64,000 nucleotides of DNA. Origin: Negaprion brevirostris (taxonomy: Eukaryota). The notes beneath the pieces were generated by a model. It did no database searches. It had not been told where the DNA came from and worked only from the letters and a program-made list of their open reading frames with translations. The position numbers were made by a program, and so were the translations under genes. Where the stretch lies: contig JARDVH010000110.1 of assembly GCA_030324005.1 (NCBI GenBank), forward strand, positions 41,947,373-42,011,372, written 5' to 3'. Of this stretch, positions 1,577 to 45,526 are shown one piece after another. Within the stretch, counting starts at the first letter, position 1; each line of letters begins with the position of its first letter.

Positions 1577-2428
1577 TGAACATCTCGCCAAGGCCATCCC
1601 CACACCCCCACTTCTTGCCTTCAAACAACCGCACAACCTCAAATAGACCATTGGCCGCAGCAAACTACCCAGCCTTCAGGAGAACACGGACCATGCCACC
1701 ACAAAACACTGCCACAGCAACCTCTGCAAGATGTACCGGATCATCGACATAGATGCCACTATCTCATGCGAGGACACCATCCACCAGGTACATGGTACAT
1801 ACTCTTGCAATTCGGCCAATATTGTCTACCTGATACGCTGCAGGAAAGGATGTCCCAAGGCATGGTACATTGGGAAGACCATGCAGACGCTATGACAACA
1901 GACAAATGAAAACTGCTCAACAATCACCAGGCAAAAGTGTTCTCCTCCTGTTGGGGAACACTTCAGCGGTCACAGGCATTTGGCCTCTGATCTTCGGGTA
2001 AGCAATCTCCAAGGTGGCCTGCACGTCACACAACAACGCAGAGTGGCTGAGCAGAGACTGATAGCCAAGTTTTGCACATGATGACGGCCTCAACCAGGAT
2101 CTTGGGTTCATGTCACACTATTTGTAACCCCCACGACTCGCCTGGGCTTGCAAAATCTCACGAACTGTCCTGGCTGGAGACCATACATACCTCTTTAACC
2201 TGTGCTTAACATTCTCTCCGCTCACATTGTCTGTACCTTTGAGATTTGATTACCTGTAAAGACTCGCATTCTAACCATTATTTTGTAAATTGAGTTTGTG
2301 TCTTTATATGCCCTATTTGTGAACAGGACTCCCAGTTACCTGCTGAAGGAGCAGCACTCCGAAAGCTAGTGGCCTGTGCTACCAAATAGATCTGTTGGAC
2401 TCTAACCTCGTGTTGTGAGACTTCTTAC
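1577..2428 (+). mobile_element. Penelope-like element 3' part (GIY-YIG endonuclease, 3' UTR and terminal repeat)
   Basis: Translates to YSCNSANIVYLIRCRKGCPKAWYIGKT...PVGEHFS...AEQRLIAKF...DLGFMSHYL, a GIY-YIG signature with stops. Ends in TGTTGTGAGACTTCTTAC like other copies in the window. Confidence 0.85.
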
Positions 2429-2476
2429 AAGAGCGGATCAGTGGCTAGGAACCCTGTGGCAAGTAACTCACCTACT

Positions 2477-3443
2477 TGTAAGATTTTGATAATTCTACTA
2501 ATTTTTAGAATCTGTTATATCTATGAATTTATTTTGTAATCATTGCTTAAATTAATCAGTTTGAACCTCTGCTAGTTGGAATGCTTTACAGGAGGGCTTG
2601 TGTTTGTGAAGAAACCAAATTGTTTTATGACTGAGTTCCTTTTGAGCCTTGAGCTGAAGTAGTGACATTTGTCTTAACAGCCCTCAATACAATCAGGTAT
2701 TTTTTCAATTCCGTTTCAAGCAATGGCTAAAAACATTGTGAACTTAGGACAATACCTTATGTTTAAACAAATCATGTATTGCTTTAATTGATTTGTACCA
2801 GAGAGGACTTCTACTCTCTGATATTATGATAGGCAGTGGCCTTAACTGTTAATTTTTACAACTTTAGTGTGGGTTAAATATGCTGACATGAGAATGTGAT
2901 TTTATTTACAGCTTCTATGTGTCTGGTAGAAAATATACATTTGTTTGTAATGGAATGTAAATGTCTGTGGTCTGAACAGTTTAATGCTATGTTTCAGTTT
3001 ACAATCCAAAAAGCAGAGGTTCCAAAGCTGGGGTGACATGGGATAATTTGCACCCTATAGCCAAAAGGGGGGATGAATTTGGACCATCTGCAAAAAAGGG
3101 AATTGCTGAATAATGAGACTAATGTATGAAAATTGAAAACTTTGTGTCTTTGTTGGCACAGTGATACCATTGCTCCTGGGTATGACTCTTTTGGACATAG
3201 TTCAATATCACCTGAAAAAAAGAGACACCAGTTGTGCTGACAACACTAAGAATTTCTGAGATCTTGAGAGACTTGCATATTGTCTTCATTTTTTCTTTGC
3301 TAAATCTATGTAAAATACTGTTTTATAAATTTTACTTGATTCATAAATATTAGTTATTCATACCCTATAGGTCAAGCACAACTGAGGATCCTAGTCAGAC
3401 CTCAAATATTTTTCAATTAGAAGGGTTTTATTCAAACATTACA
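2477..3443. mobile_element. Solo-LTR-like insertion (~967 bp)
   Basis: Begins TGTAA and ends TTACA (TG...CA inverted termini). Flanked by TACT/TCCT, a 4-bp TSD with one mismatch. Interrupts a LINE whose sequence rejoins as CACC-TCCT-GACTCCCCAAAGCC. Confidence 0.65.
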
Positions 3444-8067: not shown

Positions 8068-8380
8068 CATGGGTTATGGGTCACTGGCTACGCCAACATT
8101 TATTGTTCATCCCTGAGGCAATTAAGAGTCAACCATATTGTTGTGAATCTGGAGTCATATGTTGCCTAGACCAGGTAAGGACCACAGATTTCCTTCCCTA
8201 AAGAACATTCAGGTTTTTACAACAATCAGCAATAATTCCATGGTTATCGTTAGACTTTAATTCCAGATTTTTATTGAATTCAACTTTCATCATCTGCCGT
8301 GGTGGGATTCGAACCCAGGTCCCCAGAGCATTATTCTGGGTCTCTGGATTACTAATCCATCTCTATGCCACTACCTCCCC
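8068..8380 (-). mobile_element. tRNA-derived SINE with CR1/L2-like 3' tail
   Basis: The minus strand has a tRNA-like head with the B box GGTTCGAATCCC and a tail (GGATGAACAATAAATGTTGGC) resembling the LINE end at ~3925-3975. Confidence 0.7.
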
Positions 8381-14308: not shown

Positions 14309-17300
14309 GTAAGTTGAGCCTCTTAAAGCATTTTAATTCCGGTGCCTAACTGCAAAGTGGGGTATTCCCATTATACAGAACTAAACTTCTTGCTGTGTTC
14401 TTTTTACAGGTCGGTAAACAACTTTTTGATGACCGGACCAAAGGTGAACTGAAATTGTCTTAGACACAAACAAGTTTTAAGGTCTCGTCTATGATATTTT
14501 AGACACATTAATGGATTCATGGCTTGTCTGTATGCCTTCCATTAGCAACCAGTAACATTTTCTAATTACCGAGAATAAATAAGTTTCCCTTTAAACGACT
14601 AGTAACGCCTCGATTTTTCAAAGCTATTTAACTTTAGGAAGACGTGCGCAAAAGTAACAAAGTTTCGCATCAAACTGTAGGTAGTTCTTTCATTTACCCA
14701 ACGAGTAAACGAACTCAACTTAACTTAGGAACAAATTAAGAGGGGCAGCCCCCCAGAAAAAGAAGGGGGGATGGCCCGAACAGAAACTAAAGTCTAAAGG
14801 AAACTTAACTTACAATCACATTTTGATGTAATGTTTTAAGGGTCTATAACACACCCCAGCCCCTGCGGCGCCCAGCGGGCACGGAAGGCATGAACTGCGC
14901 CCGTGGACACCGTATGTTCCCTCTCCAGGGACACCTGGTTGCGAACGTAGCCGCGGTAATCAAACTGTAGGTATCGCATTAAAAATCTGGCTTCACGTCG
15001 CTTTGTAAGAAGTATATGAACGGATTGAGCCTACTTTTTTTGGTAGGCATTTCTGACCTATTCCAGCAGTGTTGCTGCTGGAGCTGAATCTGGGATTGAC
15101 GAATGTAAACACCAGTTCACCTGGGACCGCTGGAATTGTCCAGAGAGCGCACTGCAACTCTCCACGCACAATGGTCTTCGGAGCGGTAAGAACTAACTCT
15201 GCCCAAGCTCACAGTTTCCAGGTAGCATTTTACTCGTTACTAATTTTAATGTGCTTTTTATTAGCTACCAGAGAAACATCCTTCGTGCATGCAATAAGTT
15301 CTGCAGGTGTCATGTATACCTTGACGAGGAACTGCAGTATGGGGGATTTCGACAACTGCGGGTGCGATGAGTCAAGAAGTGGTGAGGCTGGTAGGTTGGG
15401 CAGTCTTGGCAGACCTTTTCCGTTCCTTCCCTAGCTTCCTTTGAAGGAAAGGCGTTTATTGTGATCCACTTTAGACGCGCTGTTTATTTCAAGTCAATTT
15501 CGTAGTCATTTCTGCGCCTCATGAGTCTGAACATCTGTTTCTGCAGGTGGACGAAGCTGGGTTTGGGGTGGATGTAGTGATAATGTTGCATTTGGAGAAC
15601 GAATTTCTAAACAATTTGTCGATGCTTTGGAGACCGGGCAGGATTCTAGAGCTGCCATGAACCTTCACAATAACGAAGCGGGAAGAAGGGTAAGTATATG
15701 CGTGAATGAGTGTTTCTAAATTGTTTAAATTATTCGCATTTACTCGATTATTACNNNNNNNNNNTCTGTATAGATGTTTTCACTTCCAGTACATCAAATT
15801 AATATCAATAAACCGCATCGTAGTGTTCACGGATGATGCATTCTTGGAAACACTAACTATGGGTATACACCCATAAAGGTATGGGCAATTCGTCTGTCCG
15901 TACTCGTACTGTCATTCCTAGCTTTTGGTAGCTAGTTATCATTTCTTTCAGGAATTGAGAATGTCTTTCCGGGACTGGAGTGAAAAAATTCAACCATCTT
16001 TCTGCCTGCTCCGTAGCCAGTGGCGTACCCGTCTCCTTAGATTCCTTTTTTTTCACCCCCTCCCCCTTGGGGGCTGTCTTTTTTAATTTGTCACTAAAAT
16101 TAATTTGATTTCGTTTACTACTTTGGTGCTTTTAAAAGAACTCTCAAGACGACCTTGTGCTACATTCCGGATATTAATAGTCTGATGCTTCAGGTTGAGC
16201 AAACATTGGGTGGAATGGGGGCGGGGAAAGATGACGAGGTTTTGCAGGTGTATTTAGTCACTAGTCTGGATAATCAATGGGGAGAAACTGTTTCTGTTGG
16301 CGGGAGGATCAAAAATCAAATGACGCCGATTTAAGGTGATTGCGTTAAGAAGCCCTTGCCTCTTTTGGCAGTCAGTGGTTAGGATTCAGAATATACTGTC
16401 TGACTATGGGTTCAATCAAATATTAGAATTGGATATATCCAAAAGAGTTGGAGCCAGATGAGTTGCTTATAGGGAGCTTGGAAGAAAACGGATGTCCGAG
16501 TGATCTGCTTGTGTATTGTAACCATTGTTGCTATCTATGCATGTACTTTCCAGCTGGGATTTCTGGATGGGAAAGTGTTTTTGGCTATTTTGTTCTCCCT
16601 GCCCATTGTGGTGATCTGAACTCGGATCAACCAGTTCGGAGAAGAACAGGCCTGGAACCTCCAGTTTACAGATCACTGTATATACTCGTTTGAGTGACAA
16701 ACGGTTGGACAAAAATTTGTCTTGATTGGAATGGGGGCGGGCACAATGGATGAACATTTGTTACTTAGCCAATAAATGACTTGGCTACCTTTTGCTATAG
16801 CGCTGACCTCAAAGCAATAACCCATTTGTGGCAGTGATGGAGCCTAATTACATCTATATTGACGTATAATTCTACAATAGTTCTGATCTAATATGAACAC
16901 TGATTATAGTTATGGTGTTATGGATTAATGTTCCTTAGGCTGTCAAAGAGACCATGAAGCGAACCTGCAAGTGTCACGGCGTGTCGGGGAGCTGCAGTAT
17001 CCAGACTTGCTGGCTCCAGTTAGCTGATTTTCGAGATATTGGGAACTTCCTGAAAGTGAAACACGAACAAGCTGTGAAGATCGATTTGGAGAAGCGGCGC
17101 ATGAAAGGAGGGAACAGCGCGGATAACCGGGCAGCGATAGCGGATGCGTTTAGAGCAGTGCCGCGGACAGAACTTGTCTACTTGGAAGATTCTCCCGATT
17201 ACTGCGTCCGGAACTTCACACTGGGATTGCAAGGAACCGAAGGAAGGGAATGTCTCCAAAGTGGCAAGAATCTCTCCCAATGGGAGAGGAGAAGTTGCAG

Positions 17301-17496
17301 GCGGTTGTGTGGCGAGTGTGGACTCAAGCCAGAGGAGAGAGAAACGGAGATCATCAGCAGTTGCAATTGCAAGTTTCACTGGTGTTGTACTGTCAAATGT
17401 CAGCAATGTAAACAAATCGTAACCAAACATTACTGCTCTCGGCGAGAGAGGCACAGACCTTTCAACAAGCGCAAAAATCGGGCCCAGAATTGGTGA
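14241..17496 (+). CDS. wnt8a: Wnt8a, six coding exons: join(14241..14308,14410..14443,15047..15185,15265..15390,15547..15689,16939..17496), 355 aa
   Basis: All introns are GT-AG and the phases join into an open 1068-nt frame. Signal peptide followed by [22 protein letters not shown] (lipidated Ser) and the C-terminal Cys array. Residues [28 protein letters not shown] and [15 protein letters not shown] favour Wnt8a over Wnt8b. Confidence 0.95.
14410..14443 (+). CDS. wnt8a: wnt8a exon 2 (34 nt, [12 protein letters not shown])
   Basis: TTTTTACAG acceptor, conserved Wnt8 motif, AAG|GTGAAC donor. Confidence 0.93.
15047..15185 (+). CDS. wnt8a: wnt8a exon 3
   Basis: [46 protein letters not shown]; donor G|GTAAGA. 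Confidence 0.95.
15265..15390 (+). CDS. wnt8a: wnt8a exon 4
   Basis: [42 protein letters not shown]; TTAG acceptor, G|GTAGGT donor. Confidence 0.95.
15547..15689 (+). CDS. wnt8a: wnt8a exon 5
   Basis: [48 protein letters not shown]; CTGCAG acceptor, AGG|GTAAGT donor. Confidence 0.95.
16939..17496 (+). CDS. wnt8a: wnt8a exon 6 (terminal coding exon)
   Basis: TTCCTTAG acceptor, [19 protein letters not shown]...[13 protein letters not shown]...NRAQNW*. Confidence 0.95.
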   Translation, partial: AVKETMKRTCKCHGVSGSCSIQTCWLQLADFRDIGNFLKVKHEQAVKIDLEKRRMKGGNSADNRAAIADAFRAVPRTELVYLEDSPDYCVRNFTLGLQGTEGRECLQSGKNLSQWERRSCRRLCGECGLKPEERETEIISSCNCKFHWCCTVKCQQCKQIVTKHYCSRRERHRPFNKRKNRAQNW

Positions 17497-18056
17497 GAGA
17501 CCCATGAGTTCCTCTAATGGTTTTAAAATCGACGCAAGACTTCAATGACTTGCTACTCACTGCGTTCATTTTTAACTAAACTATGTCCCGTCGTTCTTGT
17601 GGCCCGTTTGCAGATTATTTTGCGCAACATTATGGAAGCAAGACGTTCTAACTAATGTTTNNNNNNNNNNNNNNNNNNNNNNNNNNNNNNNNNNNNNNNN
17701 NNNNNNNNNNNNNNNNNNNNNNNNNNNNNNNNNNNNNNNNNNNNNNNNNNNNNNNNNNNNNNNNNNNNNNNNNNNNNNNNNNNNNNNNNNNNNNNNNNNN
17801 NNNNNNNNNNNNNNNNNNNNNNNNNNNNNNNNNNNNNNNNNNNNNNNNNNNNNNNNNNNNNNNNNNNNNNNNNNNNNNNNNNNNNNNNNNNNNNNNNNNN
17901 NNNNNNNNNNNNNNNNNNNNNNNNNNNNNNNNNNNNNNNNNNNNNNNNNNNNNNNNNNNNNNNNNNNNNNNNNNNNNNNNNNNCGGGACGAAATTTGTAG
18001 AACATTCGGTTTTGTAACATTCTGGATAAGTAGACAAAAGTTGACTCGTATTTTCA

Positions 18057-18062
18057 AATAAA
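18057..18062 (+). terminator. Candidate wnt8a polyadenylation signal
   Basis: First visible AATAAA after the stop codon, with T-rich sequence ~25 nt downstream. Part of the 3' UTR is in a gap. Confidence 0.55.
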
Positions 18063-21674: not shown

Positions 21675-21693
21675 CTTTTGGCTAAGATCAAGT
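21675..21693 (+). other. U2 snRNA 5' fragment (19-nt exact match)
   Basis: CTTTTGGCTAAGATCAAGT is identical to vertebrate U2 snRNA around nt 14-32. The flanks are not U2. Confidence 0.7.
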
Positions 21694-22990: not shown

Positions 22991-24050
22991 AATGTCAGCA
23001 TTGCAGACCCAAATATGTGTTGCATACAGGGAGATATCCTGTAAAGAAGGACCTGAGTCCTCTCTGTCCCCTTATGCTACAATTGCACTGCATATATCAC
23101 AAGCATCAGCTTAGGTTGTTACGTGAGCAAGTTTAAAGGGTAGATATTTCATTAGCCAAAAATGCACAACTTTACATGGCAGGTTCACATAACCACAGTC
23201 CATCAGAGAATATGGCATATTCAGGGATGTTTGCAGCAGATTCCTCCATTCCAGAGGCTGAAATGCATCATTGCCTCAGACAGGCTGAGACAGTACCCAG
23301 AGAAGGAACATGGCTGCAATGAGCATGATTTATCTTTACCTAATTTGCTCCTTCCACCACAATCTTACAATATCATAAACATTCTAGTAACTGGGACAGG
23401 TATTTCTGCAGATTCAGAAATGCAGAAGTCTGTAGCAAGTCTACCTCTAGCCCACCTGCTGGAAATGAGTCATTTGAATAAGAGGTTTTTCAAATTTTAT
23501 GGTCATGAAACAGTCAATTATTTTGCAAACTCTTGTCCTTGAGATAACAATGAAATGCTAAATTTGGTAGGATAAGATATGACATACAACCACCAAGAGG
23601 AAACAGTGGAACACCAAACAATGGTGATGCACATATCTTTAGAGTTATCAAGAAGTTAGTAGAATTGCAATTGGGCTGTCTGCAGAGATCATTACTTCTA
23701 AGATTTTGCATCGCAGTTCAACAGCTGGCAGGAGTGAGTTTTGGGAGCTTAATAGAAATTATGACACTAGGTGACAATACTTCAGTGATATTTGTGTTGA
23801 AGATGTAGGCAGGATTGCTAATTTTAAATGACATTTTTACGTTGCAATGAAATCTCTTCCAGGTAAGTTTGCAGAATGGCTCTTGAAGTTGTGAATAGAT
23901 TCTTGCATACAGCCTCTGTTTTCATTTTGCTGGTTACCATAATACAGCAGAGTGCTAGTTTCTTCTGGAACATACATAATGCCACTTTACAAGGCAAAAC
24001 TGTGCAAAATATACCTTATCCATGACATACTGTGGTATGGGATTCTCACA

Positions 24051-25126
24051 GTGAGAACTCTCTCAACACCGATTAAAGTTCAACTATTTGAATAAAAGCC
24101 ACTAGCTTTTGGAGTACTGCTCCTTCGTCAGGTGAGTGGGACTTCTGTTCAGAAACAAGGCATATGAAGACAAACTCAATTTACAAAATAATGATTATCT
24201 GTAAAGACTCACATTCCAACCAAGTCTTAAAGGTACAGACAATGAGTGGAGAGAGCGTTAAGCACAGGTTAAAGAGATGTGTTTTGTCTCCAGCCAGGAC
24301 AGTTAGTGAGATTTTGCAAGCCCAGGCAAGTCATGGGGGTTACAGATAGTGTGACATGAANNNNNNNNNNNNNNNNNNNNNNNNNNNNNNNNNNNNNNNN
24401 NNNNNNNNNNNNNNNNNNNNNNNNNNNNNNNNNNNNNNNNNNNNNNNNNNNNNNNNNNNNTAGTGAGATTTTGCAAGCCCAGGCAAGTCATGGGGGTTAC
24501 AGATAGTGTGACATGAACCCAAGATCCTGGTTGAGGCTATCCTCATACGTGTGGAGCTTGGCTATCAGTCTCTGTTCAGTGACTCTGCATTGTCGTGTGT
24601 TGTGAAAGCCGCCTTGGAGAATGCTTACCCAAAAATCAGAGGCTGAATGCCTGTGACCACTGAAGTGTTCCCCAACAGGAAGAGAACACTCTCTTGCTTG
24701 GTGATTGTCGAGCAGTGTTAATTCATAGCATCTGCATGGTCTTCCCAATGTACCATGCCTCGGGACATCCTTTCCTGCAGCGTATCAGGTAGATAATGTT
24801 GGCCGAGTTGCAAGAGTATGTACTGTGTACATGGTGGATGGTGTTCTCACATGAGATGATGGCATCTGTGTCAATGATCTGGCACATCTTGCAGAGGTGT
24901 GGCAGGGCTGCGTGGTGTCATCTTCACAGTTCTCCTGAAGGCGGGATAGTTTGCTGTGGACAATGGTCTGTTTGAGGTTGTGCAGTTATTTGAAGGCGAG
25001 ATGTGGGGATGACCTGTGAGATGTCATTGATGAAGATGAACATGTTGAAGGCTCCGGAGAAGATGTCGTAGCTCCTCCGCTCCAAGGAAGTATTGGATGA
25101 CAAAGGGTACTCTATGTGCCATGTCC
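24051..25126 (-). mobile_element. Penelope-like element 3' part (same family as 1577-2428)
   Basis: The minus strand carries the same GIY-YIG region (WYIGKT, LPVGEHFSGH, EQRLIAKL, DLGFMSHYL) and terminal repeat. Clearly homologous to 1577-2428. Confidence 0.85.
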
Positions 25127-25138
25127 CATTGGGATTCT

Positions 25139-25340
25139 TGATGTGGAGATGCTGGCGTTGGACTGGGGTAAACACAATAAGAAGTCTCAACACCAGGTTA
25201 AAGTCCAACCAGTTTATTTGATAATAAACCCACAAGCTTTTGGGGTCACTCACTTGATGAAGGGGCAAACCCCGAAAGCTTGTGGATTTACTATCAAATA
25301 AACTGGTTGGACTTTAACCTCGTGTTGTGAGACTTTTTAC
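25139..25340. mobile_element. Fold-back mini-element made of two inverted Penelope terminal repeats
   Basis: Arms of ~70 bp are reverse complements. Flanked by CATTGGGATTCT (25127-25138) and CATTGGTATTCT (25341-25352). Confidence 0.75.
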
Positions 25341-25845
25341 CATTGGTATTCTCCCAGGGCTGTGTAAGTACCTGAAGTATGGTTTTAAAATGCTCTCCTT
25401 AGCTAGTGTTACAGGGTGCAACAAGAAGTGTCAGGAGATATGACTACAGAANNNNNNNNNNNNNNNNNNNNNNNNNNNNNNNNNNNNNNNNNNNNNNNNN
25501 NNNNNNNNNNNNNNNNNNNNNNNNNNNNNNNNNNNNNNNNNNNNNNNNNNNNNNNNNNNNNNNNNNNNNNNNNNNNNNNNNNNNNNNNNNNNNNNNNNNN
25601 NNNNNNNNNNNNNNNNNNNNNNNNNNNNNNNNNNNNNNNNNNNNNNNNNNNNNNNNNNNNNNNNNNNNNNNNNNNNNNNNNNNNNNNNNNNNNNNNNNNN
25701 NNNNNNNNNNNNNNNNNNNNNNNNNNNNNNNNNNNNNNNNNNNNNNNNNNNNNNNNNNNNNNNNNNNNNNNNNNNNNNNNNNNNNNNNNNNNNNNNNNNN
25801 NNNNNNNNNNNNNNNNNNNNNNNNNNNNNNNNNNNNNNNNNNNNN

Positions 25846-27685: not shown

Positions 27686-28039
27686 TGAACAAAGAACAGA
27701 GAAAATTACAGCACAGGAACAGGCCCTTTGGCCCTCCAAGCCTGCACTGACCATGCTGCCTCACTTAACTAAAACCCCCTACCCTACCGGAAAGAACCAA
27801 TTCCAATTCCTTTACGCTTCCAAGTATCCTCTATATTAATTGTATATTCTGATGCTTGTGAGCCCTCTGTTACTTCAAAATTTTTGGGATTGAATTCCAT
27901 TTACCACTTTTCTACACACCTGACCAGTCCACTGGTATATTTTTTGCTTTCCATTTCACCATCAATGAAATGACCAATTTCTGTACCATCTGCAAAACTC
28001 TTTCTTAATCATGCCCCTACATTTAAGTCTACATTTGAT

Positions 28040-28545
28040 TTGATTTATTATTGTCACGTATTAACAAATAGCAAAAAATATTGTTTCTTGCTATATAGAG
28101 AAAGCATACTGTTCATAGAAAGGAAACAGTGCAGAAGGTAATGTTATAGTCAAAGCTAAGGTGCAGAGAAAGATCAACTTAATGCAAGATAAGTCCATTC
28201 AATAGTCTGACAGCAGCAGGGAAGAAACTGTTTTTCAGTCGGTTGGTACGTGACCTCAGAGTTTTGTATCTTTTTACCGACGGAAGAAGGTGGAAGAGAG
28301 AATGTCCGGGGTGCGTGGGGCCCTTAATTATGTTGGCTGCTTTACCAAGGCAGCGGGAATGTAGACAGAGTGAATGGGTGGGAGNNNNNNNNNNTGATGG
28401 ATTGGGCTGAGCAGGAGCCATACCAAGCTGTGATACAACCAGATAGAATGCTTTCTGTGCTGCATCTGTAAAAGTTGGTGAGAGTCATAACTAAGAGTTT
28501 TTAGTCTTCTGAGAAAGTAGAGGCTTTCTTAACTATAGTGTCTGT
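28040..28545 (-). mobile_element. Rex1/Babar LINE 3' end
   Basis: CLGKAANIIKGPTHPGHSLFHLLPSVKRYKTLRSRTNRLKNSFFPAAVRLLN is the typical Rex1 C-terminus. (CAAAT)n-like tail. Confidence 0.85.
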
Positions 28546-29324
28546 ATTCTCAACAAGATAAGCTGACAATTTACACACGACTAATAATAATGCTGGTTCT
28601 AGTCAGTCAGGGGTGAAGTTCAGAGAATATGAACAAACTCCGTGGTTGAGGGAGGTATTGAGTTGACAGATTTACAGAATTATCCCAATCTTACGAATTT
28701 CCTTGAAGGGACAAAGGATGGATGGCAATTAAGTGGAAGTGTGATTGGATTTTTGGCTCCATTATGAAAACAATGCAAATAACACCAGGACACCATGACA
28801 AGACTGCATGCAAACAAACAAATAAACTTTGCCTGGGATGGCTGGCCTGCTGTGCAAGATCAATACAATCAAAATTATATTGCAGAGCCTGGCATCACCA
28901 ATAGACTTTAGGGCAGCACTGTGCCCATATAATGGATTAGCTCTGAATGCAATATCAAATTACATCTCCATGTGGACAAATCAAGAACCCAAAGTGGAAA
29001 CATTAACAGTTACTCAGCCTGGCAAAATGTTATCAACAACCATGTTTCAACTCATTTCAAAGGACCATATGAAACTTAATTTTTGGAACTGTTAGAAATG
29101 ATAATTATTCCTCAATCAGTGATGCAGTGGGCAAATATGTTCCATGATATTGTGTTGCGTTGGTGGTAAGTTAGATCGCTGGACTGTGAGCTGTTAGCTA
29201 CTCTCAGCCAAGCATTAACCAANNNNNNNNNNNNNNNNNNNNNNNNNNNNNNNNNNNNNNNNNNNNNNNNNNNNNNNNNNNNNNNNNNNNNNNNNNNNNN
29301 NNNNNNNNNNNNNNNNNNNNNNAT

Positions 29325-30470
29325 GGATTGGATTGCTTGGAGCCAGGTGTCAGGCATGCAGATGTGATGGCCTACCTAGCAGAGTTGGTTTTGAGTGATT
29401 CATGCCTTGATGTTGGGCATATTGCCATGGGAGAGGATGCTGCTCTCGGATCGTCTTTCTTGCCACAGAAATTGGAGGATCTTGTGAAAGTTAATAATAC
29501 ATCTTCGGTGCTTTAGGGGCCTGCTGTAGGTTGTCCAAATCTCCAAAGCATATGGGAGCGTGGCTACTGGCGGACTTAAAATCCTGATCTCAAAATATCT
29601 TCTTGCCCATCAGCCAAAGGCTGAGCTGGTACACAGGAGGTTCCCAAGTTTTGGAAAATGGTCCACATTTTCCAGGATCTTGCTGTTGATTTTAATTGAC
29701 GGAGGAAGGTGTTGTGGTGTAGGAGCTGGTTGGAGGAGGACTTTAGTTTTCCAGGTGCTTAGTAAAAGGCTCATTTGTTTCCGAGAAGGAGTCAACAACG
29801 ACCTGGAGGTCAGTTTCTAAGTGAGTGCACACAGTGTCATTAGTATACTGAAGCTGGATTGAAGTTAGCATAGAGTGGAAGTTTTCCAGTCTGTTCTGTA
29901 AATTATATCCATGCTTATGGGTAATTTGCTAGAGGTGAGATGTGTCATTCCAGTGAGAAAGATGGAGAAAAGGTTGGTGTAATGACAGACTTGTTTGATT
30001 CCAGTCCACACCGAGACAGGGTCTCTGGTGGTTCCATTTGTAACATTCATGGCTTTCATGTCATTATAACATAGATGGTGACAATTTATGATAGCAGCCA
30101 AATTTGAGGAGGACATTCTATAAGCCCTTGCAGTTGACAGAGTAAAAGGCTTTTGTGAGGTCAGAAAAGGGCTTGTAGATGTTAGTCCTTTATATTTTTG
30201 GATTTGCCATGAAGTGCGGATCATGAATGAAAATTGCACTGCAACTCTGGAAGGAGCTCTTTGTCCAATGGAAGCAGACAACTGAGAAGGATCTTGCAAT
30301 GATCTTCTCTCTGGGTTACTTTTCATGAATATGATCACAATCACAGCATCCCTGACATCCCTTGCCATGCACTCCTTTTCCTAAATGAGGGATAATAATA
30401 GACATGTGGTCTCCTCTCCAATTGGAGAGACCAAATGCTGTCTGGGTGACTGCTTTGCAGAACAACTCCC
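29325..30470 (-). mobile_element. RTE-clade LINE RT region (frameshifted)
   Basis: RDAVIVIIF, TGIKQ and KTKVLLQP...LENVDHFPKLGNLL segments match RTE ORF motifs. Confidence 0.75.
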
Positions 30471-30482
30471 ACAAGAAAAACC

Positions 30483-31050
30483 TTGAGCTTCCTGTCACTT
30501 GTCATTTCAATCCTCCATCTTGCTCCTACTCTGACATTGTCCTCGGCTTGTTACAGGGTTCCAACAAAGCTTAATGCAAGCTCCAGAATAGCATCTTATA
30601 TTTTGACTTCCACTCTATAACCTTGTGGATCCAACATTAAATAATATTAGATTATAATATGTATTTCCATTGTTTCATTTATTTCTTTACTCATTCATTT
30701 TGCCTTTAAGCAGCTGCCATCCTGCCATTTACACCCAATGTGCACACTTCCAAATTGAACGCATCATTTTGTTTCTTTATTTTACCCATTACCACAAAAT
30801 TTTCTGTCAGTTAATCTCTTCTGTTCTCCACCTTCTCATGACCTTCCTGTTTACTCTCTGCATTTGCAACCTGTCCAGCCTTCGCCCTCCCCCCACACAC
30901 TTGCTCAAAGCTTATTTCATTTCTATCTTTCCCCAGTTGTGTTGATGGATCATCATCAACTCAAAAGATCAATTCTCTTTAAAAATGCTGCCTGACCTCC
31001 AGCAATTATTTTTGATTTCAAATTTCCAGCATCTGCAGTATTTTGCTATC
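30483..31050 (+). mobile_element. Third Penelope-like family, endonuclease C-terminus and terminal repeat
   Basis: ELPVTCHFNPPSCSYSD followed by HLIF/NIK-like remnants, a pyrimidine-rich UTR and the terminal GCTGCCTGACC...TTCCAGCATCTGCAGTATTTTGCT. Confidence 0.6.
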
Positions 31051-34000
31051 TTGTTGTAGCGGACAGCTCTAATTCGTTACTTAAATAATTTCACTGTGTA
31101 ATTTAGCTTTGAAAAGAATGTCCAACAACAAATTAATCAATTAAAATGCAATTAAGCTCAGGAGCAATAGGACAATGACAAGTTACTCGGTTAATTCATT
31201 ATCTCACACCCTGTTACAATGACCACATCATATCTACTTTCTTACAAACCAGTATTTCTTTGGACTCTCCACTGTCAATGTAAGGGAGGTGGGATAGTGC
31301 TCAAAAAAAAATCCTTTTCACTTCCTATTTCTAACTAGGTCTTCCAAATCATCAGATTTACTTCAGCATTACTCCTAGTTGTGTGAAACCTTCTTGTTTG
31401 AAAATGAATGTGCTAATATGGGCACTGTGGAAAATAAAAGAGGCTTGAAGAGTCATATTCGACTCAAACTTCAACTTTGTTTCTCTCGCCAGATCCACTG
31501 AATATTTCCAGCATTTCCTGTTTTTACTGACTTTTGGTTTCTGGGGAACTAGCAGTTATAATTAAGTTACTTTATAACAGATCTGAGAAGTTGAAAATCT
31601 TTAATTTTGCTCTGTAGATCTAATACACATTCTTCTATCTGCTATTAAAGTGATCTAAAAATTTAAATAAATTGTTTTGTGTCACCCTGAGTTTTTTATA
31701 CCCACTGCTTGTTAACATAAATAAGGATTATCAATCACAGAAAACAACAAATGGCACATTCCCTTTTACCCAAGTGACAAGACATCTTTTCATATGTATC
31801 CCAATCAATTGGTCACACATTATTCTACTGACACAATTTTTAACTGAGTTTAACTTTAGCAGCTCCTTTTGAACTGAAACAAAGAGCATGTTTCCTTTGA
31901 TTTGTAAAAACTCTTCCTTTTAAATAACAATAACAAGTGGGCATTGATCAACACAGTGTTAAACCTAACAGTTATGCTTGCTCTCTAAAACTCCTGTAAA
32001 AATTAGCATTAATTTTTTTCACATGATCAGGACCAGCTGAAAAGCTTGAAGCAAATGGTATGTTTAAATACGCATTAGGACTCGTTACTCCTAAGAGTTA
32101 TGTTTGATTATATTGTTTAATGAACTTGTTGTTCAATTAAACATTGATTATGATGATATGAATGAATAGTATACAAAGGATCCCAGCAAAAAAGTTACAA
32201 CAGAAGATTTAAGGATTTAAATTTAGCTTGTTGTCAAAACAGACTTTAGAAGCCTCATGTTCTCTCCTCTTCCAATCCCCACAGATTCATCCACACTTAC
32301 AATGATTGTATGCTTCCCATAGAAGATTCCCTCTTTGACTGCCTCTATCTTAATGTTGGCTCTCCCTTTTTATGTCGTTTCACAGCTATCACCATTGCTG
32401 CCACTTTGACCACTGAACAAATGGCACTGGTGAGCTTTCCAGAAAGTGTATAAACAATGGAAATCCATGCAAATCATTTCCACATTCATTAAGTGTTTAG
32501 CTAATAAATGAGATACGCAGTAAAATTAATCTAATTATAATCTAATCTATTAATAATCTCTCATTTCTTACAAGTGTCAATATGGCTAATTTTCACATTT
32601 CTTATCCAAATACATGATTATTTTAGAGTTCATGGCAATATATACATTTGATTCTGCATCAATGGGCTATTGCATCAATAGAACAAGAAAGCATCATTCT
32701 GACTTCTGGATGTCCTAACATGCTTTACAGCCAATTAAATATTTTTGAAATGTACTAACTGTTGTAATGTAGTAACTAAATGGTGCAGAATGACACCAAT
32801 GGCACAGGTTCAATTCCTATATTGTGTGGGATAATTTTTGGAGGCCTTATCTCCTCACTTTGCTCCATGCTTGCGGAGTGGTGCTCCTCAAGCTACAAGG
32901 AGTGAAACTGTTGCACTCTAGTAGAGAGATGCCTATGGTCTATNNNNNNNNNNNNNNNNNNNNNNNNNNNNNNNNNNNNNNNNNNNNNNNNNNNNNNNNN
33001 NNNNNNNNNNNNNNNNNNNNNNNNNNNNNNNNNNNNNNNNNNNNNNNNNNNNNNNNNNNNNNNNNNNNNNNNNNNNNNNNNNNNNNNNNNNNNNNNNNNN
33101 NNNNNNNNNNNNNNNNNNNNNNNNNNNNNNNNNNNNNNNNNNNNNNNNNNNNNNNNNNNNNNNNNNNNNNNNNNNNNNNNNNNNNNNNNNNNNNNNNNNN
33201 NNNNNNNNNNNNNNNNNNNNNNNNNNNNNNNNNNNNNNNNNNNNNNNNNNNNNNNNNNNNNNNNNNNNNNNNNNNNNNNNNNNNNNNNNNNNNNNNNNNN
33301 NNNNNNNNNNNNNNNNNNNNNNNNNNNNNNNNNNNNNNNNNNNNNNNNNNNNNNNNNNNNNNNNNNNNNNNNNNNNNNNNNNNNNNNNNNNNNNNNNNNN
33401 NNNNNNNNNNNNNNNNNNNNNNNNNNNNNNNNNNNNNNNNNNNNNNNNNNNNNNNNNNNNNNNNNNNNNNNNNNNNNNNNNNNNNNNNNNNNNNNNNNNN
33501 NNNNNNNNNNNNNNNNNNNNNNNNNNNNNNNNNNNNNNNNNNNNNNNNNNNNNNNNNNNNNNNNNNNNNNNNNNNNNNNNNNNNNNNNNNNNNNNNNNNN
33601 NNNNNNNNNNNNNNNNNNNNNNNNNNNNNNNNNNNNNNNNNNNNNNNNNNNNNNNNNNNNNNNNNNNNNNNNNNNNNNNNNNNNNNNNNNNNNNNNNNNN
33701 NNNNNNNNNNNNNNNNNNNNNNNNNNNNNNNNNNNNNNNNNNNNNNNNNNNNNNNNNNNNNNNNNNNNNNNNNNNNNNNNNNNNNNNNNNNNNNNNNNNN
33801 NNNNNNNNNNNNNNNNNNNNNNNNNNATCCACTAACATGTGAAAATGACTACAATTTAAAAGCCTTCACCTAGCTCACAAATCTTTCGAAGTAGAAAGGC
33901 AGGAAAATATGGAGTAAGCTATCAAGGCAAATTTGCCAGAAGAGATGAAATTTAGAATCTAGATTACCTATTTCACCACTGCAAGAAAATATATACTAGA

Positions 34001-35932: not shown

Positions 35933-35934
35933 GT

Positions 35935-39012: not shown

Positions 39013-40707
39013 CAATGTTCCAAAGTCCCTGAACATCCTGTCACCTTCCAAATCCCAACATATCTATCCCACAACTTTATGTTAAAATTTTTCCAAACAT
39101 CTACCAAACAAAATAACTACCATTGATATGAAAACGTGCAACAACTTATGTTAATATGCAATTGTTCATGTTACTCTTGGTCACAGTTTTCTCTCCCTAT
39201 CATCATCATCAAGTGACTTGTTCTGAAAAATCTTTACGTATAGGTATTAAGTTATCATGTAATGTTGACCACATCATCTCATAAATCAGGAGAAAATCTC
39301 TTAAAAATCAAGTATTTAGTATAAAAAAACATGAGCACTATTTTCTCAATTTGACAATTATTTGTAAATCTCATGAGTGGTTTATTTAATCTCTGACAGG
39401 TCATATGAAACTACACCCAGTCTTGCAGTTTGCCAATGGTTATAAAAGCAGACCCAGAGTCTGGTGCTCAAAGATCCTTGATCTCCAACAGTCCTCATTC
39501 CAATTAGTTCCTGCTTCCATTACAAATTAAGGCTGATTAACATTCTCATTAGGAAGGAAATCAAGTTTCATGCCTTTAAATTTGTTAGTTCTGCCGTTTT
39601 GATCATTGGAAGTGTGAATTCTGTGTACTAGTTCCCTAGATTAACATTTCTAAAACTGTCTCAGTTATCCTCTCAGCTGATTTGTAGACACAAATTTTCA
39701 TGGACTTGCGATTCTACTACTGGGATATAGTCAGATTTTACAGTGTAAACACTGGAAACGAAAGGCCAAGTATCTTGAGAACTGCAAGAGCATTAAATAT
39801 AAAAGCACTTATAATTATACTAGGCCTTCAGTGCTACTGAGTTTCCACATAATGAGTCACTTACATAAAATGTCATCAATGGTGCTCAGCCTAGCAATGT
39901 GGGCCATCTTAGTGACAGAAAGCCATACAAGTAGATAGAAGTAACATAGATACGGCTATGCTTTAGTATTTAACCCTCTGGATGCTAAAATAATTATTTT
40001 CCTTGCACTCAAAAATATTTTGGTAGGAAAATCATATTCAGTATATTATTATTTTAAATTATAAGAAATGGAATCAAATTAAGTGAATTTCAAATCAATT
40101 ATAAATCAATCCATACCATAAAATATTCTATTTCTTTACCTAACATGAATGTAATAGGAGCCTTCATATTATGCAACAGTGTAGCAAAATTTATAAGCTA
40201 TCTGGTCATTGTCAAGCTGCAACTGTTAATATGATTAATGTATGCTGTGCCTTTACCAAAAGTGGGATACTTACCTCTTTAAATGAGATGAGTGATGTTT
40301 TCTAGGAAACAGTTGGAGGCTAAATACAAAATTTAAAAAAAACAGCAGCACCTTTGGGTCTCTGCAAGAGATCAACAGACAGTGTTGCAACCCAGTCGCA
40401 ATCTGATACCCCAAGCAGCAAGCAAAAGGAAAATGTTGGAAAATGCTTTTCAATTTAAAGACGCTCAAAGTTAAATCCTACCTGAAAACAATAATTCATA
40501 TTTGTGCAAGTAGAAAATTAGTTCTCGAATTACATAGTAGCCTGTGAAAAATCCCAAGACTTTAAAACCCTCCAAGAGGAGTTTACTTTTAGTAAGAAAT
40601 TGTGTCTCTCCTGATAAGATCATAAGAGTTGGCAGCCCTGAGTGTTAGAACAGGTCCCAATGTAATGCCGTACAAAGTTGAACAGATCATTGCTGTTCAT
40701 CATCAAG

Positions 40708-40933
40708 GTAAGAAGTCTCAACACCAAGTCAAAGTCCAACAGGTTTATTTGGTAGCAAAAGCCACTAGCTTTCGGAGCGCTTGCTGCCCCTTCATCAGGA
40801 CTCACTTGACAAAGGGGCAACGAGTGCTCCAAAAGCTAGTGGCTTTTGCTACCAAATAAATGTGTTGGACTTTAACCTGGTGTTGTGAGACTTCTTATTG
40901 TGTTTACCCCAGTCCAACGCCAGAATCTCCACA
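40708..40933. mobile_element. Fold-back mini-element of inverted Penelope terminal repeats
   Basis: Arms of ~90 bp are reverse complements. Direct repeat TCATCATCAAG at 40697-40707 and 40934-40944. Confidence 0.8.
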
Positions 40934-41420
40934 TCATCATCAAGATGAACATACAAAGACTGCTTTGGAGTGCTGATGGTGCCTAGCAAACTGTATTATA
41001 GCAAGAATCAGTGTCATTGAGGTGAGAAAATATATTGTGTGTCGTCTTGGTTCAGCTGACAACATTCTCGTATCTGAATCAGTAAGTCGTGCGTTCCAGC
41101 CTCACTGTGTACTTCAATGTAAAATCTAGGCCAACCTGTTAGTGTAATACTGAGGCTGTACAACACTGTCAGAGGTTCTTCTTTTACTTTATGTATTAAA
41201 TTAAGAACTCATCTGCCTCTGAATTGTTGGCTGTGAATTGGCTTTGTCAGATCTCAGTCATGGAAGATGCTGAATGATGACAAGAGTATACGTTTGTTAT
41301 TGGAGATTTTATTGTTACAGCTTTCAGCGTCTGAATGCATTAAGCACATTTTTAAGTAGGTTGTTTGAATGGCCTCATGGATAAAGGCACTACACGTAGA
41401 ATCAAATTCATACTGATCAC

Positions 41421-41584: not shown

Positions 41585-44500
41585 TTCATAAAGATCACAT
41601 TTCATTCTCAATTTGTGTGCTGGCATGTGCTAAATTAAACTCATCCCTATTATATTTGGCTTTTATGCCTCTGGGGTAATATCTGCAGAAATTAACCAAG
41701 CATCGTCTTCCGTTTTCTGTCCAATGACACTTGCCACAAAGTGTTTGTGTAAGTGTCACATATGAAGAACTGGAAAGCAGCTCACAGAACAAATAGATTG
41801 AAAGGATAGACTGTGAGAATGAGGAAAAAGGGATAAGGCTGCAAATTTGTCATTTATATTCTACTGTCTCCATATTTTTCCCTGTGTGAATCCTACCAAG
41901 GTGTCAGTATACTTGAATTTAAGATTGACTCAGAGCGTAGAATTATTTACAATTGCCAGTTGGAGGTTAAAAATGCACAAATGTTAGATCTAACACAATC
42001 TTTTATTGTGAGTATAAACAAGGCCGCAGCTTCTGCAGACTGACAATGATAGTTGGAATCTGTAGTTAGGCTCCCTGTGGTGTGAATCATGACATACAAA
42101 TGAACTGGGACTAACAGTGAGCAAAGATCGGCAGTGGGAAGGATCATATTTAAGCTCCCTGCAGTGAAGTTCCTGGTGGAAATGGGGCCTATCACCAGGA
42201 TGTATTGCAAGTTAGATGGTGGTACAACTTAGACTGAAGATCCCTGCAGTGTAAACTGTAGAAGGATTGGGCTCTGAGACACAAAAATAGCATACATATG
42301 AGTGATGATACCAATCTTCTAGCAAAATAAATCTACTCATTTATCTAAGTCTGCAATAAAAATCAGTGCATCAATTTATTTTGTCAGGAAAATCAGTTAA
42401 AGTGATAAATAGTGGGTGTATATTGAAATCCTGTAAAAGCAGAACACAGCACAAAATCTTGTCCTATTTAAAAACTATCAAGCCATGATTTCACCTCCTG
42501 GGACATTTTTGATTTGTTCTGGTATGTAGGGATCACTGGCAAGTCTAAATTTGTTTTTCATACTTGCTGCTTTATGAAGGTGGTAATAAGCCTTTTCATT
42601 GAACCAATGCAATCCAATAACGTCAAATTGGATAGTGTAAGACTTTTGTTTCCATTTATTGAAGGAATAGCAATGATTTTGACTCCCGGTCACAATCCAG
42701 AAAACAATCAAGTGTGGATGTGAGCCTGCCCCTACTGACAAGTAGCTTACCAACAATTACTGCCTAGGCCCACATGATGCATTTGGTGTTGTCATACATG
42801 AATATATTTCATCTCTTCCAGAGCAGAGGCAGAATAATTAATTATCCGTTAAATTTTCTGTTAAAATATATTTTTTCCAACTTATTTATATATTGCAATC
42901 ATTGTTCTATTTCACTAGTTACAGTTATAGCTATCAAAAACATTTTAAAAGTCCAACAGATTTTCTTGAAATCTGTTGGAAAAGTAGAGGAGGTCTGAAA
43001 TGCTTGCTACTCCAGTAGAATCCTAAGAAAACAGGAGCTTCCATATCAATTCTTTTTCATTTATCTTTTTATGTTATTTATCATACTGATAGCTTTACAA
43101 ATGCAACAATTTACTGGATATCAAAAGACTTGAGGAAATATTAGCAAAATCTCCTTTGCTGTTCTGACATTGTAAACAATGTGATCAATTACATGACTAG
43201 GAAACCCAAAAGGTTTAATTTCCTTAGCTTTTGTTGCCTTTATTGAATTTGACCGACAGTTCCATTCAGCAGATCAGCATGGTGCCTGTTTACTAATGAC
43301 ATTTGCAAAACAAAGACAGTCACGGTCAAAAGTCAGTTGTTTCATCAAAACTCAGCCCATTTTTTTGTGGAAACCATCTAAAAGACTGAATCCAGAAAAA
43401 CATAGTGGGAACAAACAGCTGTAATAACAAGCAAACATGCTATGGAGAGGAAGAAGTATTACACCAAGCATGTTTGCATTATGTTTTTAAGTAGGTAGGT
43501 TAAGGTTAACTGAATGGTACTTAACACTTGCACAGCCCAGAAGTCTTCCAGACGTAGGGAACTTACCCCAATGTATGATTTGACGAGGGATCCCTATTTA
43601 GTGCCATACAAAACCCACCAAAATGAGGTCAGTTTAGTGCAATGGACACTGAACTCCAAATTCTACAAGGGAAAACATTTCCCTATTTTGAAGGCCATGA
43701 TACTCTCATGCACTGAGCTCATTCAAGGTTCAGATACTATATAAATATCATAAGACAAGCATCAGGAGACCTGCAATTTAAATAAGAACTTCATTTCAGA
43801 GGTGCTCCATACTGAGGTTTGTCAGATTTGTGAGAATTACATTTTTTGACGACTGTTTTTCACTGGCCAAACTAAATATTCTACATGATAATGAGTTTTG
43901 TTTTTTGCTTGGGTTTCTGCAGATTGACATTCTCTGGGTACCAATCTCCAACAGCAGTTATCTTGCTGCCATCATTGACTCTGCAGCTGCAAGAACAAAC
44001 CTCAGTCAACCTATAAACTGGATTGAAAGGAAAAGGAATTCTTGCAGGGGGTGGTGAAGAACAGCTGTGATGGTATCTCAGACATCTGGTACCCACTGAC
44101 AGTGGCCCAGCAGTCACTCCCATATTGGAAGACATATGTTTTTTCCATCTACAATTCACCAGGAAGCAGTCAAGTTGACTGACTACTTGTCCACTAACTT
44201 TGGAGGAAATTCTTCCTCATTGTTCAAATCACCAAAGTATTGAACTTTTATGCCACCTACTCATTTTTAAAAATGTATGCTTTCATAGGATTTGGGCATC
44301 ACTGGCTAGGCCAGCATTTGTTGCCCATCCCTAATTGCCGTTGTGAAGGTGGTGAGCAACCATCTTGAACCACAGCAGTCCAAATTGTACACCCATAATG
44401 CTGTTAGGAATGGAGTTCCAGGTTGACCCAATGCAGTGAAGGAACAGTGATATTGTTCCAAGTCAATATGGTATGTAGTTGGAAGGGAATTTCAAATCCC

Positions 44501-45113
44501 CTCTGTTGACAATTCCAGCTCAAGGAATCATTTACATGCCATTTCATCAAGCAGATCACTGCAATCTTGTTAGTCAGGACATCTCATATGTCACTTTCCT
44601 CAAAAGAGGCACCAACTTGAGAACTTGCAGCACCCCTTGTAACTGAATTATCAAAAATGTGCAGCCCATTTGACGACACATATCTAAGCATTAGATACTA
44701 GCAATTCTTTAACATATAGGAACTCCAAAAGATTTGTGTCATGCTTCAGAATTTTTTAAATCATTGTTTTTCATGACAGAAAGAATTTTGGGATTGAGTT
44801 ATGTATAAATTTTGTGTTTTAAAGCCAAGTGAGTCCTTGATAGTTTTTGAATAAACAGGCTGAACCCACTGATAAGATATATTAGAACTAAACAGGTGAG
44901 TTTGTGAGTATCACAACTGATACAATGTGAAAATTAATTGTATAATTCCAGGTCCATTGGTTGAAATAACCCCCAATCATTTTGAAAAACAACAGAACAT
45001 ATTCCCTTCAAACCCACACTGAATGGGAAAGATAAGAGGTAGCTGGTTTTATTGGCAGGCCTACTGGTGAGTCTCTTACCAGAGGAAGTCAGCATCACTG
45101 TCCAGCTGTCATT

Positions 45114-45526
45114 GTAAGAAGTCTCACAACACCAGGTTAAAGTCCAACAGGTTTATTTGGTAGCACAAGCCACAAGCTTTCAGAGCACTNNNNNNNNNNN
45201 NNNNNNNNNNNNNNNNNNNNNNNNNNNNNNNNNNNNNNNNNNNNNNNNNNNNNNNNNNNNNNNNNNNNNNNNNNNNNNNNNNNNNNNNNNNNNNNNNNNN
45301 NNNNNNNNNNNNNNNNNNNNNNNNNNNNNNNNNNNNNNNNNNNNNNNNNNNNNNNNNNNNNNNNNNNNNNNNNNNNNNNNNNNNNNNNNNNNNNNNNNNN
45401 NNNNNNNNNNNNNNNNNNNNNNNNNNNNNNNNNCAACACCAGGTTAAAGTCCAACAGGTTTATTTGGTAGCACAAGCCACAAGCTTTCAGAGCACTGCTC
45501 CTTCATCAGGGCATATAAAGACACAA
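45114..45526 (-). mobile_element. Penelope terminal repeat(s) spanning a gap
   Basis: GTAAGAAGTCTCACAACACCAGGTTAAAGTCCAAC... is the same terminus as the other copies and recurs on both sides of the N gap. Confidence 0.75.

Follow-up and report, generated by a model that had tools for sequence, protein, structure and literature searches.

A Penelope-like element inserted at four loci

The window, by which we mean the whole 64,000-nucleotide stretch analysed, carries four insertion loci (A to D, Table 1) of one Penelope-like element (PLE). A sequence-only reading of this DNA had described five dispersed hammerhead repeats; the motifs are genuine, but they are parts of these four loci rather than independent repeats. 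Its assignment of them to Penelope was supported by endonuclease fragments upstream of two copies, by the tail, by inverted copies and by target-site duplications. A broken GIY-YIG endonuclease lies about 210 nt upstream of the hammerhead at loci A and B. As shown by tblastn, residues 461-643 of protein P0005 align at 73-76% identity at locus A, and residues 428-643 match the main copy of locus B. The 5' end of locus A falls inside an N gap (1288-1576), and loose contig ends accumulated at its 3' end (2427-2428) in four of four runs. The main copy of locus B is interrupted by a gap of 100 Ns and includes 57 nt that are duplicated in the assembly there. Target-site duplications were found at loci B and C; the flank of locus A is not visible, and a search for a duplication at locus D found none. 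The hammerhead sits about 210 nt past the endonuclease stop and about 60 nt ahead of a sharply defined 3' end, which a 38-nt tail can extend.

The endonuclease fragments are 72-80% identical to their best shark protein matches, and 18 of the 20 protein matches at E ≤ 0.001 were named from four shark genera. On this protein homology, the earlier attribution to a shark family is likely. Loci A and B, like P0005, show two cysteines between GIY and YIG. A CX2-5CxxC linker, which is common to Neptune and Nematis (PMC8557442), is complete in P0005, P0002 and P0007; its last Cys is altered at locus A, and a frameshift splits it at locus B. Among vertebrate PLEs, Neptune and Poseidon were the only clades that Li et al. 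2026 (bioRxiv 10.64898/2026.07.22.740005) found. Judged by this motif, in a window without an RT core, the element likely belongs to the Neptune clade. Neither the endonuclease fragments of the window nor eight other fragments had a Pfam match, and a PDB sequence search with the protein profile returned 0 matches. The family tail, used as a DNA pattern, gave 0 loci in metagenome, prokaryote genome and viral contigs; protein-guided scans of metagenome and viral contigs likewise gave 0.

Table 1. Features of the four insertion loci, in window coordinates
Feature	Position	Strand	Remarks
Locus A, PLE 3' part (linker, GIY-YIG endonuclease, 3' UTR, hammerhead, short end)	1577..2428	+	tblastn
Locus A broken endonuclease reading frame	1578..2127	+	Stops; frameshift near 2075
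c1 minimal hammerhead	2337..2371	+	Core change A6C, private to c1; predicted cut after 2368
Locus B target-site copy 3	24038..24046	-	9 nt, exact
Locus B main copy, 5'-truncated (RT thumb region to short end + 4 tail bases)	24047..25129	-	tblastn
c2 minimal hammerhead	24100..24134	-	Descriptor match; core change G12A, at CpG
Locus B target-site copy 2	25127..25138	-	Between fold-back unit and main copy
Fold-back unit B'	25139..25340	.	Long-tail arm on minus strand, short-end arm on plus strand
Unit B' 38-nt tail extension (long end)	25139..25176	-	Long end at same base as in unit C
c3b 3'-half hammerhead	25231..25246	-	Stem II 3' strand onward, G12A; same strand without CUGANGA half
c3 minimal hammerhead	25251..25284	+	Descriptor match; core change C3U, 4-bp stem II, H17=U
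Locus B target-site copy 1	25341..25352	-	12 nt, 11/12 identical to copy 2
Locus C target-site duplication, left	40700..40707	+	8 nt; 11 nt counting 3-nt overlap with tail end
Locus C, free-standing fold-back unit, two back-to-back hammerheads	40708..40936	.	Short end left, long end right
c4 minimal hammerhead	40763..40798	-	Core intact, 5-bp stem II; inversion junction cuts stem I to 1 bp
c4b minimal hammerhead	40803..40841	+	Absent from the sequence-only reading; core changes C3U, G8A, G12A
Unit C 38-nt tail extension (long end)	40899..40936	+	Long end at same base as in unit B'
Locus C target-site duplication, right	40937..40944	+	Pairs with left copy
Locus D, short 3' end fragment	45114..45530	-	244-N gap splits fragment; 5' end approximate
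c5b 3'-half hammerhead	45173..45189	-	Gap edge; identical to c5
c5 minimal hammerhead	45478..45509	-	Core intact, C11.1U wobble; descriptor match

Hammerhead motifs in the window

We searched the window with a descriptor for minimal hammerheads that allowed at most one core mismatch and required at least 4 bp in stem II and at least 1 bp in stem I. It returned exactly the five motifs of the sequence-only reading, all of which read as reported; four spans were exact, and only 24099-24138 on the minus strand was slightly wide (exact span, 24100-24134). Twelve first-order Markov control windows gave a single match in total (mean 0.08 per window). A strict descriptor, which required an exact core and a stem I of at least 3 bp, gave 0 matches in the whole window: an exact core, a stem I of 3-5 bp and a stem II of at least 4 bp never occurred together, which bears out the remark that no copy is fully intact. 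Beyond these five, the window holds a sixth full-length copy, c4b, and two 3'-half copies, c3b and c5b. Over 63 nt the c5b region shares 100% identity with the copy on the far side of the N gap; it is either an assembly duplicate or a tandem copy. An Rfam scan of the window (E ≤ 1) gave three matches, none of them a hammerhead, although this is a weak test as Rfam models are not designed for minimal motifs.

The layout was rightly recognised as that of the minimal type I hammerhead of PLEs, and fits the published consensus (PMC4209133). The core (CUGANGA + GAAA) is exact in two of the six full copies, carries one change in three and three changes in one. In the two copies with a perfect core, c4 and c5, stem I is down to 1 bp; at c5, with the family base at 2315 as reference, the 5' strand of this stem was lost in a 27-nt deletion flanked by two 4-nt repeats. 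An unpaired extra A after A9 (between 9 and 10.1), a palindrome at 15.2-16.2 without loop 3, and the UH cut site are present in all six. The 10.1-11.1 pair is G-C in five copies and G-U in one, and H17 is A in four and U in two. Cervera and De la Pena (PMC4209133) give four features in addition to their descriptor, all of them relevant here, among them the extra base, the G10.1-C11.1 pair and the palindrome. Stem I is retained in four of six, and stem II in six of six. The claim that stem II changes yet stays paired is weak. Of the stem II cells 90% are paired, but covariation did not rise above shuffles: in these six copies both sides had changed in one of nine pairs, in a single copy, and 245 of 500 shuffles scored equally high.

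When three copies were cofolded with themselves by minimum free energy, c3 gave the dimer, in which helix III is intermolecular and 4 bp long; c1 and c2 gave no hammerhead dimer. The predicted monomer folds frequently lacked stem I. The copies in the window are predicted to be inactive, and are likely dead.

Variation across the family

The element family is very abundant. Its variation was read on a 371-nt stretch from the DNA-type contigs of four runs (15,112-33,455 contigs per run), with variants unlinked. The family majority matches every hammerhead core position. A6 (position 2343) is A in 97% of the family depth, so the A6C change of c1 is not the family state. Across the four runs N7 is C in 10-12% of depth and H17 is U in 8-9%; position 10.3 is G in 10-12%, which keeps a G-U pair. 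Among the 40 of 89 variant rows listed, G12A (7-10% of depth) and C11.1U (10-15%) are of similar order to the changes at the one CpG in the UTR that served as control (5-13% and 21-24%), and these rows do not show the core to be better conserved than its surroundings. The copies probably decayed after insertion, much of it at CpG sites. No contig covered the whole 371-nt stretch, and joints were seen in single contigs only, too few for a map of inversion points.

Fold-back units and their targets

Two loci hold fold-back units of about 200-230 bp, each with a 38-nt tail and its own target-site duplications. Unit B' has 62-nt arms that are 92% complementary around a 22-nt loop, and unit C has 82-nt arms that are 87% complementary around a 9-nt loop. 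Between the units the arms are 79-83% identical and carry different diagnostic bases. Because centres, diagnostic bases and arm pairs all differ, we infer separate origins for the two. The short end falls on the same base in four of five visible short ends, the fifth having 4 extra tail bases, and the long end falls on the same base in both fold-back units. The inner arm ends lie 1, 6 and 7 nt before C3, with the fourth inside stem II. Predicted transcripts of the units form a single long hairpin (-112 and -140 kcal/mol) in which both motifs are hidden.

At 24-25 kb one target site is present three times; its 12-mer has only two matches in the window at up to one mismatch, and its 9-mer exactly two occurrences. 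Locus C lies within a short TCA repeat; loci B and D show no evident microsatellite target.

Every copy in the window carries both sides of the hammerhead cut site, and the RNA that was copied is therefore likely to have been uncleaved.

Interpretation

We conclude, with a probability of about 0.85, that the motifs are mutated minimal type I hammerheads in the pLTR of an abundant PLE, likely Neptune and likely from a shark, whose copies in the window are predicted to be inactive; for cutting, the parent motif would likely need to dimerise or to be helped by the protein of the element. Over 15.1-16.1 lies a 4-nt palindrome, which would form a helix III of 4 bp only when two copies pair, and an uncleaved template would fit a ribozyme that is inactive as a monomer. 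It is improbable that the likeness is instead a vestige or coincidence, shared through descent from a single master while the RNA fold was under no selection. Covariation no higher than shuffles and the absence of an Rfam match speak for this, and the comparison of core and neighbour conservation draws on the 40 of 89 variant rows listed; yet the family majority fits the core throughout, at the published pLTR place of PLE hammerheads, and the controls gave only 0.08 matches per window. Co-option of one or more copies by the host, for instance for the processing of transcripts around the Wnt gene (15-17.5 kb), is more improbable still: although c4 and c5 keep a perfect core, both have lost stem I and c4 is locked in a hairpin, no locus offers a same-strand full-motif partner, and all copies lie at least 6 kb from the two Wnt exons found.

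What gives rise to the fold-back units? The two 3' ends are probably the two internal RT start sites described for the anole element. Both nicked target strands would then prime cDNA, one per start site, and the two short cDNAs would be joined close to the hammerhead's 5' half to give a fold-back unit. We put forward a fuller version tentatively, as a possibility that we would not yet favour: the units would be twin-primed Penelope products with cDNA from the short and long start sites, the place where the cDNAs stop and join would be set by the uncleaved hammerhead or by a 5' end of the RNA immediately ahead of it, and the same target would have been struck again, giving the triplication at 24-25 kb. 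The hammerhead would here act as a structural boundary and not as a cutter.

A rather unlikely alternative agrees with the main reading on what the motif is but departs from it on function, holding that the hammerhead is kept mainly as a folded RNA signal, either a protein-binding site or a point where cDNA stops or switches, with cleavage rare or incidental. The spanned cut site in all copies and the three inner arm ends just before C3 are in keeping with this, as are two results on the anole element, that ribozyme mutants insert unimpaired in vitro and that RNA reads ending at the cut site are lacking (PMC11167929). Against it, the arm ends number four and come from two units; locus D starts further upstream and loci A and B reach into the ORF. 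The family variants are seen at catalytically tolerated positions, N7 and H17, and PLE hammerheads do cleave in vitro, if weakly (PMC4209133). We consider it very unlikely that the PLE protein copies the fold-back units whole, as a non-autonomous element that propagates itself in the manner of a MITE or a retrozyme. The two are similarly built, each has a target-site duplication, and unit C stands alone, but their centres differ in loop length and breakpoints, the units differ in diagnostic bases, the hairpin transcript would conceal both motifs, and there is no retrozyme-like tandem array. A non-LTR retrozyme array was considered separately and rejected, since self-comparison of the window shows none and the only identical direct pair flanks an N gap.

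Literature searches found no shark Neptune PLE, although Repbase, Dfam and subscription journals, which were outside their reach, may hold the family; the sole mention of 'shark' with a Penelope hammerhead referred to the shape of the fold and not to the animal. A search on twin priming and inverted copies gave no title concerning PLEs. On the role of the hammerhead in endonuclease-positive PLEs, the contribution of this window is not functional. The abundant family is a large natural sample for cut versus uncut RNA templates and for the placing of inversion junctions, and junction counts over its many thousand shark copies could test the boundary model.

Comparison with known systems

Non-LTR retrozymes (Li et al. 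2026, bioRxiv 10.64898/2026.07.22.740005) share with our motifs the type I hammerhead derived from a PLE pLTR, and are reported there in the sole chondrichthyan sampled. They differ in forming head-to-tail arrays with a full hammerhead per unit, none of which was seen in the window.

The anole element PAc, a Poseidon of Anolis carolinensis (Frangieh et al. 2024, PMC11167929), has two RT start sites, an uncleaved template and a demonstrated protein-assisted cleavage. Like PAc, the present element has a hammerhead upstream of two fixed ends with an AC-rich tail between them, and its inserted copies probably come from uncleaved RNA. In contrast, PAc belongs to the Penelope/Poseidon clade without the linker zinc finger, and its ORF begins inside the hammerhead. 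Here the core ATG meets a stop at the cut site in copies with H17=A and within 16 codons in c5; because of these early stops, an ORF start within the core is unlikely.

PLEs as a rule have a tail of 30-40 bp and, next to them, a truncated copy in inverted orientation (PMC8557442). As in Neptune PLEs (Craig et al. 2021, PMC8557442), we found a C-terminal GIY-YIG with CCHH, a CX2-5CxxC linker, 5' truncation, an adjacent inverted copy and a tail of 30-40 bp at one end, but no microsatellite target evident at loci B and D.

The motifs compare closely with the minimal hammerheads (min-HHR) that metazoan PLE pLTRs carry (Cervera and De la Pena 2014, PMC4209133), an arrangement that has been published since 2014. 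Like these, our motifs are type I, with a CUGANGA + GAAA core, an extra base after A9, G10.1-C11.1, a palindromic 15.2-16.2 without loop 3 and a short stem I; they are placed after the endonuclease ORF, and occur mostly as single dispersed copies or as opposite-strand pairs 100-700 bp apart. That survey already lists turtle, rotifers and Schistosoma with the G-C-U-H form after GAAA. Stem II, at 4-5 bp, is at the short end of the published range. Its 56 motifs (Fig. S3) include no cartilaginous fish; the window adds to the catalogue a Neptune family, likely of a shark, that is not among them.

Hammerhead copies in the window

The sequence-only reading had listed five hammerhead motifs in the terminal repeats of a Penelope-like element (PLE), and their sequences were confirmed by direct reading of the window. 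A minimal type I hammerhead was described as stem I, CUGANGA, one base, a stem II of at least 4 bp, GAAA, a complementary pair, U and H. A relaxed version of this descriptor, in which the core could have one mismatch and stem I could be as short as 1 bp, recovered exactly these five motifs in the window, and gave one match in total over 12 Markov control windows. The strict version (no mismatch, 3-bp stem I) had no match in the window, in agreement with the earlier remark that no single copy is fully intact. A sixth full copy (c4b) and two half copies were recovered by a tail search and self-comparison.

Positions of the element loci, fold-back units and full-length hammerhead copies (changes in hammerhead numbering)
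Feature	Position	Strand	Description
Locus A	1577-2428	+	broken endonuclease frame, ending ~210 nt before the motif
Locus B	24047-25129	-	broken endonuclease frame, ending ~210 nt before the motif
Unit B'	25139-25340		fold-back with a short and a long end; arm complementarity 92%
Unit C	40708-40936		fold-back with a short and a long end; arm complementarity 87%
c1	2337-2371	+	core change A6C
c2	24100-24134	-	core change G12A
c3	25251-25284	+	core change C3U
c4	40763-40798	-	exact core, stem I of one pair only
c4b	40803-40841	+	core changes C3U, G8A and G12A
c5	45478-45509	-	exact core, stem I of one pair only

One half copy (45173-45189) lies on the other side of a 244-N gap from c5, to which it is identical over 63 nt. 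It may be an assembly duplicate, as a 57-nt duplicate at 24304/24461, flanking a 100-N gap, is likely to be. At 45509-45515 (minus strand) a deletion of 27 nt, between two 4-nt repeats, has taken the 5' strand of stem I from c5 and left its core exact. Locus D, which holds c5, is bracketed by a 13-nt exact repeat (45079-45091 and 45550-45562), set about 22 nt beyond either end; it is part of a 28-nt, 82% match and not a simple target-site duplication.

The earlier argument had been that stem II changes yet stays paired. The pairing itself held, with 85% of cells paired over the six copies compared to 29-53% when the partners were slid. The covariation did not: two-sided change occurred only at pair 10.3-11.3 (A-U in three copies, G-U in two, G-C in one), a score at least as high was reached by 245 of 500 shuffles, and the outer pair 10.5-11.5 was broken in three of the six copies. 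What had been the main structural argument is weak, and stem II pairing in these copies mostly reflects descent from similar masters.

Host element and clade

When the locus A frame was used as a protein query (P0001; X written for each of its two stops), 20 of 90 candidate proteins matched. The six best matches were 72-80% identical, and 18 of the 20 were named from Mustelus, Heptranchias, Scyliorhinus or Chiloscyllium. A related protein of 643 aa (P0005) combines an RT domain and a CX4CxxC linker with a GIY-YIG region in which two cysteines lie between the motifs. A CX2-5CxxC-type linker and a two-cysteine GIY-YIG are given as marks of Neptune and Nematis in the sections consulted of Craig et al. 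(PMC8557442), and the accessible text of Li et al. (2026, bioRxiv 10.64898/2026.07.22.740005) reports only Neptune and Poseidon from vertebrates. Because of these marks and this distribution, the element is likely to belong to the Neptune clade. Pfam gave no match for the endonuclease fragments of the window, and the Atlas pointed to GIY-YIG as a lead, with 31% of a single cluster. Stretches resembling the endonuclease also occur in shark gene models (P0002, P0008, P0014, P0016, P0018 and P0020; for example septin 5a, XRCC5 and PPP1R12A-like isoforms), as exonised copies or annotation artefacts.

The window also holds two exons of a Wnt gene (15057-15434 and 16939-17496, plus strand; Pfam wnt, E 5e-11 and 6e-45), which we take to resemble Wnt8, and two tRNA-Val genes (62814-62887 and 63395-63467, plus strand; anticodons AAC and CAC), spaced 581 nt apart and sharing 97% identity over 78 nt. 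A tRNA-like T-arm at 8300-8344 (minus strand; weak tmRNA match, E 0.028) is likely a fragment of a tRNA-derived SINE. Putative pieces of LINE reverse transcriptase and of an LTR-element integrase, at 1-1287, 28179-28484, 29865-30380 and 46776-47769, matched no Pfam family in any frame tried.

Variation across the family

No locus of the family was found in public contig collections, by tail DNA pattern (metagenome, prokaryote genome, viral) or by protein-guided search (metagenome, viral). Contigs of four of the 24 listed sequencing runs (X1, X3, X8 and X11, from organisms A-D) were aligned to window positions 2150-2520 at 80% likeness, giving 18,459, 33,455, 15,112 and 19,174 contigs, respectively; X1 may be the source of the window itself and is not independent, and the reference, a decayed copy, biases which contigs are recruited. 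A6 was present in 97% of depth across the four runs. Among the variant rows listed (40 of 89), where depth is not copy number and variants are unlinked, N7 was C in 10-12%, H17 was U in 8-9% and 10.3 was G in 10-12% of depth; majority lines of the loose ends also showed N7 = A and H17 = C. The family thus varies at the free positions N7 and H17; the variants listed do not show the core to be better conserved than its flanks. G12A (7-10%) and C11.1U (10-15% of depth) fall at one CpG, and one UTR CpG gave 5-13% and 21-24%. Loose contig ends accumulate at 2427-2428, and some continue into the tail.

Insertion anatomy and target sites

Four of the five visible short ends terminate at the same base, ~60 nt past the predicted cut, and the fifth has 4 extra bases. 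Two arms form long ends, extending 38 nt more and both terminating at one base. Of the inner arm ends of the fold-back units, three precede C3, at distances of 7, 6 and 1 nt, and one is inside stem II; no copy in the window starts or stops at the cut site. A short TG run (25188-25190 and 40719-40721) is 2 nt shorter in the minus-strand arm of both fold-backs than in the plus-strand arm, with identical bases missing in the two cases; this may be chance slippage.

An 8-nt duplication flanks unit C (11 nt if its 3-nt overlap with the tail is included). Locus B has three occurrences of its target site (25341-25352, 25127-25138 and 24038-24046), bracketing the truncated element and the adjoining fold-back unit; within the window the 12-mer is present just twice at up to one mismatch, and the 9-mer likewise just twice. 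The last three positions of the 12-mer may belong to the truncated copy, as its first bases, or to the target, with later changes in the third copy. This triple site suggests that the element struck twice at precisely one place. Was the adjoining copy the template? The arms of B' are 93% identical to each other and 76-79% identical to c2, and share bases absent from c2 (H17, 11.3 and bases after the cut site), so a different template is likely. PLEs tend to insert into or next to earlier copies, as stated in part of PMC6765202. Drawn from two fold-back units only, our reading of the hammerhead as a boundary and of the triple target is tentative, with a probability of roughly 0.3.

Ribozyme activity and comparison with known elements

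Minimal PLE hammerheads are described in portions of Cervera and De la Pena (PMC4209133) as not cleaving as monomers and cleaving weakly as dimers or trimers. For an anole element, the available sections of Frangieh et al. (PMC11167929) describe RT start at two sites bracketing the tail, cutting and extension of both DNA strands, hammerhead cleavage that requires protein, and uncleaved RNA as the main substrate. The shark motif would work as in these systems, and its fold-backs would arise from priming on both strands. Since a cut at the hammerhead site would detach the region where RT starts from the body of the element, cleavage is likely held off during productive transposition. Inactivity is predicted for the copies in this window: core changes are found in four, stem I is missing from two, three are part of long hairpins, and no copy has a full same-strand partner in its own locus. 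Cofolding gave a hammerhead dimer for c3 only, among three copies tried.

No paper on a shark PLE hammerhead was found in the literature searched. Type I hammerhead retrozymes are reported from one chondrichthyan in the accessible text of Li et al. (2026, bioRxiv). This kind of arrangement, a PLE with a minimal hammerhead, is already published: the 2014 survey (PMC4209133), in its machine-read columns, covers 56 motifs from 40 species, cartilaginous fish being absent there, and the part consulted lists the same G-C-U-H form and opposite-strand pairs as in the shark element.
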